Positions 5,438-16,510 of a stretch of 43,220 bases of DNA are shown piece after piece. The stretch is from a virus (lineage: Duplodnaviria; Heunggongvirae; Uroviricota; Caudoviricetes). Made by a program: the position numbers and the translations under genes. Where the stretch lies: the IMG/VR virus record IMGVR_UViG_2563366806_000003; one strand, written 5' to 3'. The notes below the pieces were generated by a model that was given only the letters and a program-made list of their open reading frames with translations, was not told where the DNA came from and made no database searches. Within the stretch, counting starts at the first letter, position 1; each line of letters opens with the position of its first letter.

Positions 5438-6262
5438 TCAGGCGGTGAAAGTACCAATAAAGGTTTCTACTTTGCTGTCCTTGAATTTCTCAACAAGCAG
5501 ATCACGAAATTCGTTAGCCATTTCTTCCTGCACCGCCTCCAGCTGAATAATGCGCAGAACCAGTACCGGACGATCGCCAGTGATAATGCTGAGGCGTAAT
5601 TTAAACGGACGTTCTTTCAGACCTTCAAACGGAATGCATTTAAATTCAAATGCCACTGGCATAATGTCTTTGGTCTTCGCTTCGACAGACTCCATCAGGG
5701 AGCGTTTGCCGCTGAAGTCATTATCTTCAAAATCAGCGGTCTGGTTTGCTTCAATCGTGATTTTACGGACCGCCGCAGCCGCTTTTGTTGCCTGAATGGT
5801 GTCACCATTAGCATCAAAGCCCACAAGGTAGTCGGCCCAGTCTTCAATCCATTCTGCCAGTGATTTCTGGGAGTTACGCTCGCCATTAACAGACAACAGA
5901 GCAGAGAACGGTGCTGTCTTTTTCAGTTTGAGAGTGGCGGTGTTATCTGCGTGACCTGGTTCATCAATAGTACCCAGGTTAAGCACACTGACGGCACGCA
6001 TATTATCAGCATCGATAAAGCAGCGGGTGCCTTCATCTGCAAGATCTTTAGAATAACGGGTAAAGTCATCGATGCTGGCAGTGGAAAGCGCACCACGGAA
6101 ACGGAAGCGATTTAAATTAAATTTTTCCAGATCATGAATGCGGAAATTCTCAGGCAATGCCACAGCATCGGCACCAATCTTACTGATAATTTCATTAACA
6201 CCCTGAGCAGAAATAAGGGCATGGATTTGATTAATTGCGGTTGCGTCTAAGTTCTGAGACAT
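5438..6262 (-). CDS. YfdQ-family (DUF2303) phage protein
   Basis: 274-aa ORF of the same length and context as E. coli prophage YfdQ. Confidence 0.6.
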
Positions 6263-7127: not shown

Positions 7128-7373
7128 ATGACTTTTGATGAAAAAGAACTTGATAATGCAATTAATAAAATCATCGTAACGTCGCTCTTTTCCTGTCTCA
7201 GCGACACTCAGCAGAAACAGTTCTACGAATCGGCTTTCAACATGATCGAGCGTTGTTGTTTCTGCGATGCCGACGAGTTACCTGAAAAAATCAGGAAACA
7301 GTTGGCTGATGCTCTTCGAGTGCGACTTTCTGACCAATTTTCTGAAATGTGCTCTCCGAATTTGGACAAATAG
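7128..7373 (+). CDS. Hypothetical small protein, 81 aa
   Basis: Strong RBS (aaaaggaaaatcaaATG), protein-like sequence; overlaps convergently with the 7291-7566 ORF, so only one may be real. Confidence 0.35.
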   Translation: MTFDEKELDNAINKIIVTSLFSCLSDTQQKQFYESAFNMIERCCFCDADELPEKIRKQLADALRVRLSDQFSEMCSPNLDK

Positions 7374-7566
7374 AAAAAGGCCATTTCCATTCAGGGTCTG
7401 ATGGAAATACTTCAGCCTGTTCCAAAGCACGGCGTAAAGAGAATACAACTCCAGCCATAATCTGATGTTTCCCATTGGTCCAGCTATCGCCGCTCTGATC
7501 TACAGGAGCGGCTATGTCGTATGACCAAACGACTTCACCACTATTGTTTAAAATCTGGACTTTCAT
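7291..7566 (-). CDS. Hypothetical protein, 91 aa, first ORF downstream of the leftward early promoter
   Basis: GGAGG about 12 nt upstream; position equivalent to the first pL gene; its 3' part overlaps the + ORF and contains a terminator-like hairpin. Confidence 0.35.
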   Translation of the reverse strand: MKVQILNNSGEVVWSYDIAAPVDQSGDSWTNGKHQIMAGVVFSLRRALEQAEVFPSDPEWKWPFSICPNSESTFQKIGQKVALEEHQPTVS

Positions 7567-7684
7567 TTTGTTCTTTAACCTCCAGATACGGGCGTTTAAT
7601 GGCCCCGCCGAACAGCTCTTTTCCGCAATAGCTGCAATGTCTTTCGCGCATCAGCCTGCGCATTCACCACAACTCTAAAAACAA

Positions 7685-7737
7685 ATGTAGGATATCCAAC
7701 ATGTGAGTGTCAAGAGTTTATGTTGGTTATCCTACAT
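7685..7737 (-). promoter_or_regulatory. Left operator/promoter region (OL/pL-like): two 18-bp palindromic operators flanking a TTGACA -35 on the minus strand
   Basis: atgtaggatatccaacat (7685-7702) and atgttggttatcctacat (7720-7737); same operator/-35 arrangement as the rightward promoter at 8488-8516. Confidence 0.55.
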
Positions 7738-7753
7738 AAAAAGATAGGCTCAT

Positions 7754-7779
7754 AAAAAAACCGGGGATACCCCGGTTTT
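7754..7779 (-). terminator. Intrinsic terminator downstream of the repressor gene
   Basis: ccgggg-atac-cccgg hairpin with a T-run on the minus strand. Confidence 0.65.
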
Positions 7780-7799
7780 GCGATAGTGAGGAAGATGTG

Positions 7800-8453
7800 T
7801 CAAAAATCCATTATTACTTGTTTGACAAGACCAACTATTCTGCAGTTCTCACCGCATTCAATAGTTTTATAGTTAGGATTTAGTGGGACGAGATACCTGT
7901 TCGGCCAGTCCTCAACAAATTTTTTGAGTGTCGCTTCTTGCCCACCATTGATATGGGCAACAACGATTTTTCCGTTAATACACTCTGTATCAATAATATC
8001 TGGCTCTACGATAACGATAGAACCTTCTGGTATCGATGGTGAGCCGAGGGGATTGGTCATTGAATCACCACGGACCCGTAGTGCAAATGCCATTTCTGAT
8101 ACAAGGGCGGTAGTATAAACCCACTCTTCAGCATCTTCTTTCCTGACACCAGGCTCCGTCATTGTCCATGAACCCGCCTGAACCCACGAGATGAGGGGGA
8201 CTTTTTTAACTGCGAATATTTCAGGTTTTAGATTTATCTTTGGTTCAGGCGAGCCTTTTCCGCTAACAAGCCACAGAGGATCGCATTTAAGTGCGTTGGC
8301 TAGGGCTTGAAGGTTGGCTCCATTTGGTTGGTAGTCGTCCTTTTCCCATCCAGTAACCGTGACACGGTTCACACCAGTCAAATCAGCCAGTGCTTGTTGT
8401 GTCAGGTTCAGTTCTTTTCGCCTTTGGCGAATACGATCACTCATGTTCATCAT
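7800..8453 (-). CDS. CI-like prophage repressor (N-terminal XRE-type HTH, C-terminal S24 LexA-like peptidase domain)
   Basis: …LNLTQQALADLTGVNRVTVTGWE… HTH; C-terminal …LRVRGDSMTNP… and …KKF… S24 self-cleavage motifs; divergent from the Cro-like gene with operators between. Confidence 0.85.
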   Translation of the reverse strand: MMNMSDRIRQRRKELNLTQQALADLTGVNRVTVTGWEKDDYQPNGANLQALANALKCDPLWLVSGKGSPEPKINLKPEIFAVKKVPLISWVQAGSWTMTEPGVRKEDAEEWVYTTALVSEMAFALRVRGDSMTNPLGSPSIPEGSIVIVEPDIIDTECINGKIVVAHINGGQEATLKKFVEDWPNRYLVPLNPNYKTIECGENCRIVGLVKQVIMDF

Positions 8454-8476
8454 GTAGGCAATCCTACCACATGCCC

Positions 8477-8517
8477 ATGTAGGATTCTTGACATTGGTAT
8501 GTTGGATATCCTACATT
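8477..8517 (+). promoter_or_regulatory. Right operator/promoter region (OR/pR-like)
   Basis: TTGACA at 8488-8493; 18-bp palindromic operator atgttggatatcctacat (8499-8516) over the -10 region; degenerate half-site copy at 8477-8494. Confidence 0.55.
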
Positions 8518-8548
8518 TCTGCTTAACGTAATTTAACGGGAGACAGAA

Positions 8549-8746
8549 ATGCGGAAATCCGACGTGATTAATTATTTCGGCGGAGTTTGTAAAACCGCCG
8601 AAGCCCTAGGTATTAAGCATCCGTCTGTTTCAGAGTGGCCTGAGATTATTCCTGAAGGCCGAGCGTACCAGTTAGAAAAAATTACTAACGGGAAACTGAA
8701 AGTTGACGTGTCTTTATATCAAAAGACTAACAGTGCTGCGGCATAA
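8549..8746 (+). CDS. Cro-like DNA-binding protein
   Basis: 65-aa protein divergent from the repressor; …GGVCKTAEALGIKHPSVSEW… HTH typical of Cro/YdaS-like proteins. Confidence 0.7.
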   Translation: MRKSDVINYFGGVCKTAEALGIKHPSVSEWPEIIPEGRAYQLEKITNGKLKVDVSLYQKTNSAAA

Positions 8747-8773
8747 AAACACCACAGAAATGAGGAATTAACC

Positions 8774-9358
8774 GTGGGTAAAGAACCTGAATGGAAAGTT
8801 GATAAACAACCAGCATGGCTGGTGGCAGCAATACGAAGAACGATTGCTGATTTACCTCATGGCTATGAGGAAGCAGCAGAAATTCTTGGTTTGTATAAAT
8901 CTGATGATATCACCCCAGCAAAAGATCAATTGCATAACAGACTGCGTAGCGGTGGGGATCAAATTTTTCCACTTGAGTGGGCCATGGTTTTACAGGATGC
9001 CAGTGGTACCAGGCATGTAACAGATGCAATAGCCCGTCGTAGTAATGGGGTGTTTGTGCCGCTGGTGGTCATTGATGACATTGACAATGGTGACATTAAT
9101 CAGCGGCTGATGGAGTCAATAGAATGGATTGGCAAGCATTCCCAGTACTTACGCAAGGCAACTGCTGATGGAGTTATTGACCAAGCTGAGCGTGAGCAAA
9201 TCGAAGAGAACAGCTACCAAGTAATGGCGAAGTGGCAGGAGCATTTAACACTGTTATTTCGTGTTTTTTGTGCGCCGGAAAAGAGTAACGCCCGCGAGTG
9301 TGCAGCTCCGGGCGTCGTGGCGTCGATTGCTTCTGGTTGTGGAGAAACTAACGCATGA
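8774..9358 (+). CDS. CII-like / YmfL-like early regulatory protein
   Basis: 194-aa ORF directly after cro; size and position match e14 YmfL / CP76-type CII-like regulators (recalled). Confidence 0.45.
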
Positions 9359-9693
9359 ACAGTTTAACAACACACTACCGTCGCTCGCAACTGATTGCGC
9401 TTCCTGTACCGGGTGGAAAAGCGAAGGTGGAGTATTGCTATGCAGTGAATGTACCAGGTGACAGGGAAATTGTAACCCACAGCTTTGCAGAGTGGGCTGT
9501 GGGGGATTTCAACCGGCAGAAGGAGACAGTCCTTTGCGACAAGTTAACCGCTGGTTCAAAGATCACTACGGAGTGCCCGTCAGAGTCATTCGTTGGGAAC
9601 CGGAAACACAACGGGTTATCTACCTCCGCGAAGGCTATGAGTATGAGTGCTTCAGCCCGCTCGAACAGTTTCGTCGTAAATTCAGGGAAATAG
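9355..9693 (+). CDS. Hypothetical early protein, 112 aa (YmfM-like by size and position)
   Basis: ATGA start/stop overlap with the upstream gene; C-terminal third is low-complexity and overlaps a protein-like alternative frame (9492-9713). Confidence 0.4.
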
Positions 9694-15045: not shown

Positions 15046-16098
15046 ATGAAAAATACTGTAAAAATAAACAGTGTTGATTTAATCAACGCTGATTGCCTGC
15101 ATTTTATTCAGTCCCTGCCTGATGATTCCATTGACCTGATTGTTACCGATCCGCCTTACTTCAAGGTGAAACCTAACGGTTGGGACAATCAGTGGAAAGG
15201 GGACGAAGATTACCTTAAGTGGCTGGACCACTGTCTGGCCCAGTTCTGGCGGGTGTTGAAACCTGCCGGAAGCCTTTACCTGTTCTGTGGGCATCGCCTG
15301 GCATCTGATATTGAGATCATGATGCGTGAACGTTTCAACGTGCTTAACCATATCATCTGGGCGAAGCCGTCCGGACGTTGGAATGGGTGTAATAAAGAAA
15401 GTCTGCGCGCATATTTTCCTGCCACAGAGCGCGTTCTGTTTGCTGAACATTACCAGGGGCCATATCGCGGCAAAAGTGACGGCTATGCGGCAAAAGAAAG
15501 GGAACTCAAACAGCACATAATGGCACCGCTGATATCGTATTTCAGGGATGCTCGTGCCGAACTGGGTATAACGGCAAAACAAATTGCCGAAGCCACAGGT
15601 AAGAAAAATATGGTTTCCCACTGGTTTGGTGCCAGTCAGTGGCAGTTGCCGAATGAGGCTGACTATCGGAAGTTACAGGCACTGTTTTCCCGTATAGCGG
15701 CAGAGAAGTTTCAGGAACAACAACTGGAACAACCACACCACCAGCTGGTGGCATCTTATGATTCACTGAATCGCAAATATTCTGAATTGCTGGATGAGTT
15801 TAAATCTCTCCGGCGCTATTTCTCCGTATCAGTTTCCGTGCCTTATACCGATGTCTGGACGCATAAGCCCGTTCAGTTCTATCCGGGTAAACATCCGTGC
15901 GAGAAACCGGCGGATATGCTCCGGCAAATAATCAATGCCAGTAGTCGACCTGGTGATCTGGTTGCTGATTTCTTTATGGGATCCGGTTCCACAATAAAAG
16001 CAGCAATGGCGCTGGGGCGTCGGGCGTTAGGTGTTGAACTTGAGTCAGAGCGGTTTAATCAGACGGTGAAAGAGGTAAGTGAACTGGTGGGGAAATAA
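15046..16098 (+). CDS. Orphan DNA N6-adenine/N4-cytosine methyltransferase (beta-class)
   Basis: DPPY motif (…IVTDPPYF…) near the N-terminus and FxGxG (…DFFMGSGST…) near the C-terminus; no adjacent restriction endonuclease. Confidence 0.8.
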   Translation: MKNTVKINSVDLINADCLHFIQSLPDDSIDLIVTDPPYFKVKPNGWDNQWKGDEDYLKWLDHCLAQFWRVLKPAGSLYLFCGHRLASDIEIMMRERFNVLNHIIWAKPSGRWNGCNKESLRAYFPATERVLFAEHYQGPYRGKSDGYAAKERELKQHIMAPLISYFRDARAELGITAKQIAEATGKKNMVSHWFGASQWQLPNEADYRKLQALFSRIAAEKFQEQQLEQPHHQLVASYDSLNRKYSELLDEFKSLRRYFSVSVSVPYTDVWTHKPVQFYPGKHPCEKPADMLRQIINASSRPGDLVADFFMGSGSTIKAAMALGRRALGVELESERFNQTVKEVSELVGK

Positions 16099-16174
16099 TT
16101 CTGGTGGCCACGTTGCGTGGCCTTTTTATTTCCAACACAGCACCCGCAAATATCGCGAGGTGAGAGATGACGAA

Positions 16175-16510
16175 ATGCCTCATAACCCAAATACCTGGCC
16201 GGACTGGCTGGAGTTGTTTCAGAGCTGGTGGCGTGGAGACACACCGCTGGGTGCAGTGATTATGTCGATCGTTATGGCTGGTTTGCGCATCGCCTATTTT
16301 GGCGGTGGTGGTGGCTGGAAGCGAAAAACGCTCGAGATTTTGCTATGTGGCGCTCTGACGCTGACCTTTGCATCCGCTCTTGAGTATGTCGGATGGCCTA
16401 AATCGCTTTCTGTTGCCATTGGTGGTGGCGTGGGGCTGATCGGTGTCGATGCTATTCGTGGGGCTGCAATGCGAGTAATCGGTAACAAATTTGGTAGCTC
16501 GAAGGAGTAA
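16175..16510 (+). CDS. Holin
   Basis: Small protein with predicted transmembrane segments immediately upstream of endolysin R; internal ATG after the gaggtgagag RBS; the track ORF extends upstream into the methyltransferase gene. Confidence 0.65.
   Translation: MPHNPNTWPDWLELFQSWWRGDTPLGAVIMSIVMAGLRIAYFGGGGGWKRKTLEILLCGALTLTFASALEYVGWPKSLSVAIGGGVGLIGVDAIRGAAMRVIGNKFGSSKE

Follow-up and report, generated by a model that had tools for sequence, protein, structure and literature searches.

The sequence analyzed here (hereafter the window) is the whole 43,220-bp stretch of the virus record IMGVR_UViG_2563366806_000003, assigned to the Caudoviricetes. It contains a gene encoding an S24-type repressor, which is flanked on both sides by intergenic regions carrying copies of an 18-bp palindrome. 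We conclude that a temperate enterobacterial phage very probably uses this region as its immunity (lysis/lysogeny) switch, following the design of P22 immC and phage 21 imm. The repressor gene and a cro gene are divergently oriented and separated by an intergenic region of 95 bp. The left and right sets of putative operator sites are designated OL and OR, respectively, and the identified features, ordered by position, are as follows.

7684-7713, minus strand: PL, predicted leftward early promoter (-35 hexamer TTGACA at 7713-7708, 18-nt spacer, -10 hexamer TACATT at 7689-7684)
7685-7702: putative operator OL1, ATGTAGGATATCCAACAT, 0 mismatches to the operator motif, overlapping the spacer and the -10 hexamer of PL
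7720-7737: putative operator OL2, ATGTTGGTTATCCTACAT, 1 mismatch, central (A8 to T), upstream of the PL -35 hexamer
7753-7779, minus strand: intrinsic terminator following the repressor gene (10-bp stem and U-run)
7800-8453, minus strand: immunity repressor gene (217 amino acids; N-terminal HTH_3 domain, C-terminal Peptidase_S24 domain)
8452-8469: putative operator OR3, ATGTAGGCAATCCTACCA, 4 mismatches, overlapping the repressor start codon (its first two bases)
8477-8494: putative operator OR2, ATGTAGGATTCTTGACAT, degenerate (5 mismatches), composed of a left half-site and a terminal ACAT and containing the PR -35 hexamer
8488-8517, plus strand: PR, predicted rightward early promoter (-35 hexamer TTGACA at 8488-8493, 18-nt spacer, -10 hexamer TACATT at 8512-8517)
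8499-8516: putative operator OR1, ATGTTGGATATCCTACAT, 0 mismatches, overlapping the spacer and the -10 hexamer of PR
8549-8746, plus strand: cro gene (65 amino acids; P22_Cro family, PF14549, 8e-22), the first gene of the rightward operon
8774-9358, plus strand: gene of a CII-like regulator (194 amino acids; Phage_CP76/YmfL family, PF06892, 1e-6), the second gene of the rightward operon

The 18-bp palindromic motif ATGT(A/T)GGATATCC(A/T)ACAT was searched for throughout the window in the form ATGTWGGATATCCWACAT. When up to three mismatches were allowed, only OL1, OL2 and OR1 were found in the 43,220 bp (0.06 sites expected), and none of 100 shuffled sequences reached three sites. These three sites, including the single central mismatch of OL2, had been named in a preliminary description of the region and can be read directly from the sequence; OR1 is the exact reverse complement of OL1. 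A wider mismatch scan, with 200 first-order Markov simulations as the background, revealed five sites with up to four mismatches (0.46 expected), four of which are located in the two intergenic regions flanking the repressor gene. An operator-like sequence, ATGTCGGATGGCCTAAAT, is also present at 16386-16403 (4 mismatches). With 0.46 such sites expected by chance, and given its location within an open reading frame (ORF; 16079-16510), it is probably fortuitous.

Five putative operators were distinguished in total, two to the left and three to the right of the repressor gene. The preliminary description had listed two right-hand sites and overlooked OR3; the right operator is tripartite, with gaps of 4 and 7 bp between its sites. 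The degenerate copy that it had placed at 8477-8494 (OR2) is indeed present, with its left half-site and terminal ACAT, and is conserved in related phages, but with five mismatches it is not significant by sequence alone. The designation of OR2 as an operator is supported by its position and by this conservation. The centres of the left-hand sites are separated by 35 bp, and the PL -35 hexamer falls in the interval. The statement that operators bracket a TTGACA hexamer on each side is therefore accurate for the left side, whereas on the right the hexamer is situated inside OR2. The sequence to the right of OL2 was inspected by eye and in the mismatch scan for a third OL site, and that over the PL -35 hexamer for a mirrored OR2; neither is present. 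The central tetranucleotides of the sites are ATAT (OL1 and OR1), TTAT (OL2), ATTC (OR2) and CAAT (OR3), which suggests, by analogy with P22, that binding would be tightest at OL1 and OR1.

The flanked gene encodes an S24-type repressor, as had been proposed: its product matches HTH_3 (PF01381; 1e-15, residues 8-62) and Peptidase_S24 (PF00717; 4e-25). The closest structures to its N-terminal domain are those of the N-terminal domain of P22 C2 (1ADR and 2R1J; 3e-15). Similarity to the lambda cI repressor was also detected (7e-25; 1e-22 for the C-terminal domain). The VQAG, GDSM and LKK motifs of the window protein align with Ala111-Gly112, Ser149 and Lys192 of lambda cI, and the corresponding Ala93-Gly94 cleavage site, Ser131 and Lys177/178 are invariant in the repressor alignment; on the basis of these residues, RecA-stimulated autocleavage of the repressor is predicted. 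The protein thus combines an N-terminal Cro/CI-type helix-turn-helix (HTH) domain with an S24 domain carrying an Ala-Gly bond and a Ser/Lys dyad, the features by which a lambdoid CI-type repressor is recognized. The region around it has those of a lambdoid immunity region, namely a divergent cro-like gene and repeated symmetric operators placed over outward promoters on both sides. The repressor shares 60.5% amino acid sequence identity with that of phage mEp390 and 44-46% with P22 C2 and phage 21 cI, while Cro is 49-57% identical to the Cro proteins of the mEp390, P22-type and imm21 loci. In RefSeq the CII-like protein is named YmfL family putative regulatory protein.

The RefSeq label of the repressor is "LexA family protein", and the outer TGT...ACA of the palindromes resembles the LexA box CTGT-N8-ACAG; the sites could accordingly be read as host LexA boxes that place the prophage under the direct control of host LexA. 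The likelihood of this is negligible. The motif ATGT-N10-ACAT spans 18 bp and the LexA box 16 bp, the sites lack the C and G that flank the LexA box, and the N-terminal domain of the repressor is a Cro/CI-type HTH_3 domain closest to P22 C2, not a LexA winged helix.

PL and PR each scored 10/12 in a scan for sigma-70-type consensus promoters. They share the structure TTGACA-18-TACATT and face outward as mirror images, which bears out the leftward and rightward early promoters of the preliminary description. At the position of PR, mEp390 has TTGACC-18-TACTAT. The OL1/PL and OR1/PR cassettes are identical in 27 of 32 bases, and the TACAT of the -10 hexamer is supplied by the outer half-site of the operator, as might be expected if the repeats were a duplicated promoter cassette (copies of PL and PR) that has no operator function and is palindromic only incidentally, e.g. 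through an EcoRV site (GATATC) combined with the -10 hexamer. We consider this explanation very improbable, since (i) OL2 and OR3 are palindromic and have no associated outward promoter, (ii) across mEp390 and Yersinia phage YeP1, conservation is as high in the inner half-sites, to which no promoter role falls, as in the outer ones, and (iii) the homologous sites of P22 are proven operators (PMC5175364).

The strong operators (OL1, OL2 and OR1) are all asymmetric at positions 5 and 14, each pairing an ATGTAGG half with an ATGTTGG half. It is the ATGTAGG half that faces the transcribed side in OL1 and OR1, and its complement CCTACAT, together with the next T, provides the -10 hexamer TACATT. 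The ATGTAGG half-site appears to be under dual constraint in these two operators.

The minus strand of OR3, TGGTAGGATTGCCTACATG, contains an extended -10 motif, TGnTAGGAT (8469-8461), located 7 nt before the ATG of the repressor gene, and this motif is a candidate for the maintenance promoter (PRM). On the same strand AGGA is found 8 nt before the repressor ATG, and the whole segment is retained in four phages. The terminator at 7753-7779 had been overlooked by the consensus scan; folding of this hairpin gave -17 kcal/mol (z = -3.95), and GC hairpins with T-runs occupy the equivalent place in the mEp390, YeP1 and P22-type loci.

We compared the region with seven related loci: UAB_Phi20 (P22-type), lambda imm21, mEp390, Yersinia phage YeP1, Pantoea phage AH07, Klebsiella phage ST101-KPC2phi6.3 and a prophage of Enterobacter sp. 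kpr-6. UAB_Phi20 stands for the P22 type, the N-terminal domain of its C2 protein matching P22 C2 at 9e-44. The layout is common to all seven: (i) three 18-bp symmetric sites are present in the cro/repressor intergenic region, the third abutting or overlapping the repressor ATG, (ii) past the repressor gene there is a terminator, followed by two sites 35 bp apart (between centres) around the PL -35 hexamer, and (iii) the promoter-proximal left site overlaps, at its outer end, with the PL -10 hexamer. The half-site word co-varies with the recognition helix of the repressor across the seven loci.

P22-type and imm21: recognition helix GVSNVAISQWE, half-site ATTTAAG
Window, mEp390 and kpr-6: recognition helix GVNRVTVTGWE, half-site of the ATGTAGG type
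YeP1: recognition helix GVSRVTVTGWE, half-site of the ATGTAGG type
AH07 and ST101-KPC2phi6.3: recognition helix GVSRVSVTKWE, half-site (T/A)(G/T)GTA(A/C)C

This co-variation lends indirect support to the view, already put forward in the preliminary description, that the operators would define the immunity specificity of the phage. It also bears on the question of which protein occupies the palindromes, which the computed data do not tell. They might mainly serve Cro, or a different regulator of the phage (the CII-like YmfL protein, for example), with the S24 protein recognizing something else. Cro, a member of the P22_Cro family, is likewise a dimeric HTH protein for which symmetric sites in the same region are expected. 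We judge such an assignment improbable: the half-sites follow the recognition helix of the repressor, and no other repeated symmetric motif is present in the two intergenic regions. In characterized lambdoid systems, P22 included, the repressor and Cro use the same operators, which is a further argument against sites reserved for Cro. The operators of P22 are described in PMC5175364.

Assignment of the palindromes to the repressor is favoured most by their conservation. In the alignment of the window with mEp390 and YeP1, the invariant positions of the right-hand sites number 14/18 in OR1, 15/18 in OR2 and 17/18 in OR3 (46/54 in total), compared with 1/11 in the spacers. On the left, 15/18 positions of OL1, 11/18 of OL2 and 6/6 of the -35 hexamer are invariant, and 2/11 of those in the adjacent spacers. 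OR3 is identical at all 18 positions in mEp390 and Enterobacter kpr-6, and at 17 of 18 in YeP1, while its flanks have diverged. Of the in-silico evidence, we regard these conserved islands as the most telling in favour of the palindromes being the operators of the repressor and setting its specificity. A profile scan of genome contigs with the repressor alignment retrieved mostly distant relatives (<40% identity) with unrelated helices and operators, and only kpr-6 was informative.

Compared with the known lambdoid immunity groups, the region matches the experimentally characterized immunity regions of P22 and phage 21, which are near-identical to each other, site for site in its layout, and its half-site word is distinct. 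The P22 operator consensus is ATTTAAGATATCTTAAAT, in which the central ATAT is uncontacted and Val33 of the repressor packs on the thymine methyls of TTAA, at the TpA step (PMC5175364). Positions 2-7 and 12-17 are contacted and positions 8-11 are read indirectly, with the involvement of Asn46 and Glu44 (PMC4267663). The window consensus, ATGTAGGATATCCTACAT, departs from it at positions 3 and 6 and their symmetry mates only: position 3 of the half-site is T in P22 and G in the window, and position 6 is A in P22 and G in the window. In both phages the operators are 18-bp sequences with two-fold symmetry, whose central 4 bp are A/T-rich. The two repressors have the same two-domain architecture and a similar length (216 amino acids for P22 C2 and 217 for the window protein), and both Cro proteins belong to the P22_Cro family. 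The gaps between the OR sites are 4 and 7 bp in the window and 5 and 7 bp in P22, and OR3 abuts the repressor ATG in both. On the left side, P22 and phage 21 also have OL1 and OL2 35 bp apart around the PL -35 hexamer and a PL -10 hexamer overlapping the outer end of OL1.

Several differences from P22 were also noted. PR is located about 13 bp nearer to cro, relative to OR1 and OR2, than in P22. In the window its -35 hexamer lies within the right half of OR2 and its -10 hexamer at the outer end of OR1, whereas in P22 these hexamers are at the left edges of OR2 and OR1, respectively. The PR/OR1 geometry therefore duplicates that of PL/OL1 in the window, as it does in mEp390. Only two recognizable OL sites are present in the window, while six operators in total have been attributed to P22 (PMC5175364). 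A further difference from P22 is that neither an N gene nor a nut site can be recognized downstream of PL.

Residue i of the window repressor corresponds to residue i+2 of P22 C2. Gln21, Val33, Trp38 and Asn46 of P22 C2 are retained, as Gln19, Val31, Trp36 and Asn44 of the window protein. The recognition helix itself has changed from SNVAISQ to NRVTVTG through the replacements of Ser31 by Asn29, Asn32 by Arg30, Ala34 by Thr32, Ile35 by Val33, Ser36 by Thr34 and Gln37 by Gly35 (P22 and window numbering, respectively); outside it, Glu44 is replaced by Gln42 and Glu48 by Ala46. Arg30 may read one of the new guanines. Membership in the P22/21 homo-immunity group was considered and rejected, because the half-sites are ATGTAGG/ATGTTGG and not ATTTAAG (as in ATTTAAGATATCTTAAAT), and the helix is NRVTVTGW and not SNVAISQW, with only Val and Trp kept. 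By its layout, the switch of the window thus belongs to the P22 C2/21 cI structural lineage, with a specificity that, judged from helix and half-site, is distinct.

The window shares with lambda the logic of the switch, i.e. divergent cI and cro genes, a tripartite OR over PR and PRM, an OL over PL and a self-cleaving S24 repressor. The lambda operators are, however, 17 bp long and unrelated in sequence to the 18-bp operators of the window, and there are three OL sites in lambda and two in the window. The N-terminal domain of the window repressor is P22 C2-like and not lambda-like, and Cro belongs to a fold family (P22_Cro) different from that of lambda Cro. The stretch between the repressor gene and OL contains a terminator and lacks rexAB genes, in another difference from lambda. 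The position of the candidate PRM -10 hexamer, 7 nt ahead of the repressor start codon, recalls the leaderless cI mRNA of lambda.

A lambdoid mode of action may be proposed for the switch. Dimers of the S24-type repressor would bind the 18-bp operators through ATGT(A/T)GG half-sites, leaving the A/T-rich central tetranucleotide uncontacted. Occupancy of OR1 and OR2 would occlude the -10 and -35 hexamers of PR. Occupancy of OL1 would occlude the spacer and -10 hexamer of PL, with OL2 situated just upstream of the PL -35 hexamer. With the operators occupied, both early operons would therefore be switched off, and the lysogen would be immune to phages with the same operators. At a high repressor level, OR3 would also be occupied, resulting in negative autoregulation of PRM, which lies within OR3 and possibly yields a leaderless mRNA of the lambda type. 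Cro, produced from PR, would be expected to act on the same operators. Upon SOS induction, activated RecA would stimulate self-cleavage of the repressor at Ala93-Gly94 by the Ser131/Lys177 dyad, leading to prophage induction. Repressor binding and cooperativity, the start points of the promoters, PRM, the binding of Cro and the inducibility by RecA are the parts of this scheme that we infer by homology.

Four points weigh against our interpretation of the region as an immunity switch of this design, or against parts of it. The sequence of OR2 alone is not significant, as eight sites were observed at its mismatch level and 3.5 are expected. The two glutamates of P22 C2 that take part in indirect readout, Glu44 and Glu48, are replaced here by Gln42 and Ala46, and the details of central-base readout may differ. 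Lambda repressor activates PRM from the -42 position. A PRM starting at the repressor ATG would place the centre of OR2 near -32, and positive autoregulation is consequently uncertain: it may work differently or be absent. Finally, no published binding, footprint or transcript-start data for the module were found in the searched literature.

Among the closest known relatives of the switch are the immunity regions of mEp390, YeP1-3 and the kpr-6 prophage. Their recognition helices are identical or nearly so, the promoter/operator geometry is the same, the shared core of the operator consensus is GTAGGATATC(C/T)NACAT, and OR3 is identical or differs by one base. Their repressors, on the other hand, are 60-61% identical to that of the window overall and 64-74% in the N-terminal domain, Cro is 57% identical, and the spacers and flanking genes are unrelated to those of the window. 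Variant half-sites also occur (ATGTAAG and AAGTAAG in mEp390, ATGTCAG in YeP1). Because the helix is identical or near-identical and the operator word almost the same, despite about 60% repressor identity, we tentatively suggest that the window, mEp390, YeP1-3 and the Enterobacter prophage constitute a single immunity group spanning genera, or one with partial cross-immunity, that the module is a natural specificity swap of the P22 c2 system, and that its PRM is leaderless, of the extended -10 type and located within OR3. This combined proposal is somewhat doubtful as a whole. If it is true, the specificity swap relative to P22 c2 would consist of two base changes per half-site paired with about five helix substitutions.

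The module is 99-100% identical in six deposited phages (vB_EcoM-720R4, SKA5, the Stx1 phage Lys8385Vzw and three Stx2c phages), in all of which the repressor is 100% identical. Of 5426 complete Escherichia coli genomes, 140 carry an 881-bp segment comprising the module (7680-8560) at 99% identity or more. The carriers include the enterotoxigenic E. coli (ETEC) strain H10407 and strains of O157:H7, O111:H8, O121 and O103:H2; the RefSeq labels used in them are "LexA family protein" and "Cro/CI family transcriptional regulator". In the genome paper of Lys8385Vzw, CI, Cro and CII are said to be absent (PMC7946995). The deposited sequence of this phage (MT225100) has the repressor/cro/CII-like module at 99.8% identity to window positions 7588-8800, annotated only as "LexA family transcriptional repressor" and "DNA-binding protein". 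When the searchable literature was queried for the operator string and its cores, the only matches were to unrelated primers and no paper containing the operator sequence was found, nor was an operator analysis found in the literature for mEp390, Lys8385Vzw, 720R4 or SKA5. While the kind of system is fully known, its operator specificity appears to be uncharacterized.

The module is bordered on the left by a mosaic junction at about 7570-7588. To the left of it the sequence is similar to orf33 of SfV (96.5% identity to SfV in 7400-7568), and to the right the immunity module begins; homology to Lys8385Vzw and the Stx2c phages starts at 7588. Directly after the predicted PL -10 hexamer there begins a segment of 86-89 bp (7588-7676), which is 97-99% identical in otherwise unrelated P1-like phages, mEp460, Stx2a phages and IME207. 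In the P1-like phages it overlaps the 3′ end of an annotated "plp" gene. Its minus strand contains a micro-ORF, MRRLMRERHCSYCGKELFGGAIKRP, of 25 amino acids in mEp460 and 40 amino acids in the window, for which no Pfam family was found. The possibility that the 86-bp segment encodes a put- or nut-like structured RNA was considered and is unsupported (fold z = -0.61, no Rfam match). Rfam searches detected nothing relevant, either in the whole window at the gathering thresholds or in 7300-9500 at E values up to 1.

The genes located to the left of the module vary among the carriers. In the window, the leftward early region encodes a DUF2303 (YfdQ-like) protein (5438-6262; 8e-92), as is also the case in the CPS-53/KpLE1 prophage and in mEp460. 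In E. coli ARL09/232 (L009), which has the same module, the first gene of the leftward operon (8557-8922 of that sequence) encodes a 121-amino acid protein with a ClpX C4-type zinc finger (PF06689; 8e-6), and the prophage of this strain adjoins a truncated tRNA-dihydrouridine synthase gene (dusA-type integration site).

The switch described here is a textbook one in kind, and nothing conceptual is changed by it. Its value is practical: an operator word, promoter positions and a likely cleavage site are now available for a module present in 140 of the 5426 E. coli genomes. The module occurs in Stx1- and Stx2c-converting phages, in which loss of the repressor controls toxin release. Being a natural and close variant of the P22 c2/operator pair, whose structure is solved, it can also serve the study of shifts in repressor specificity.

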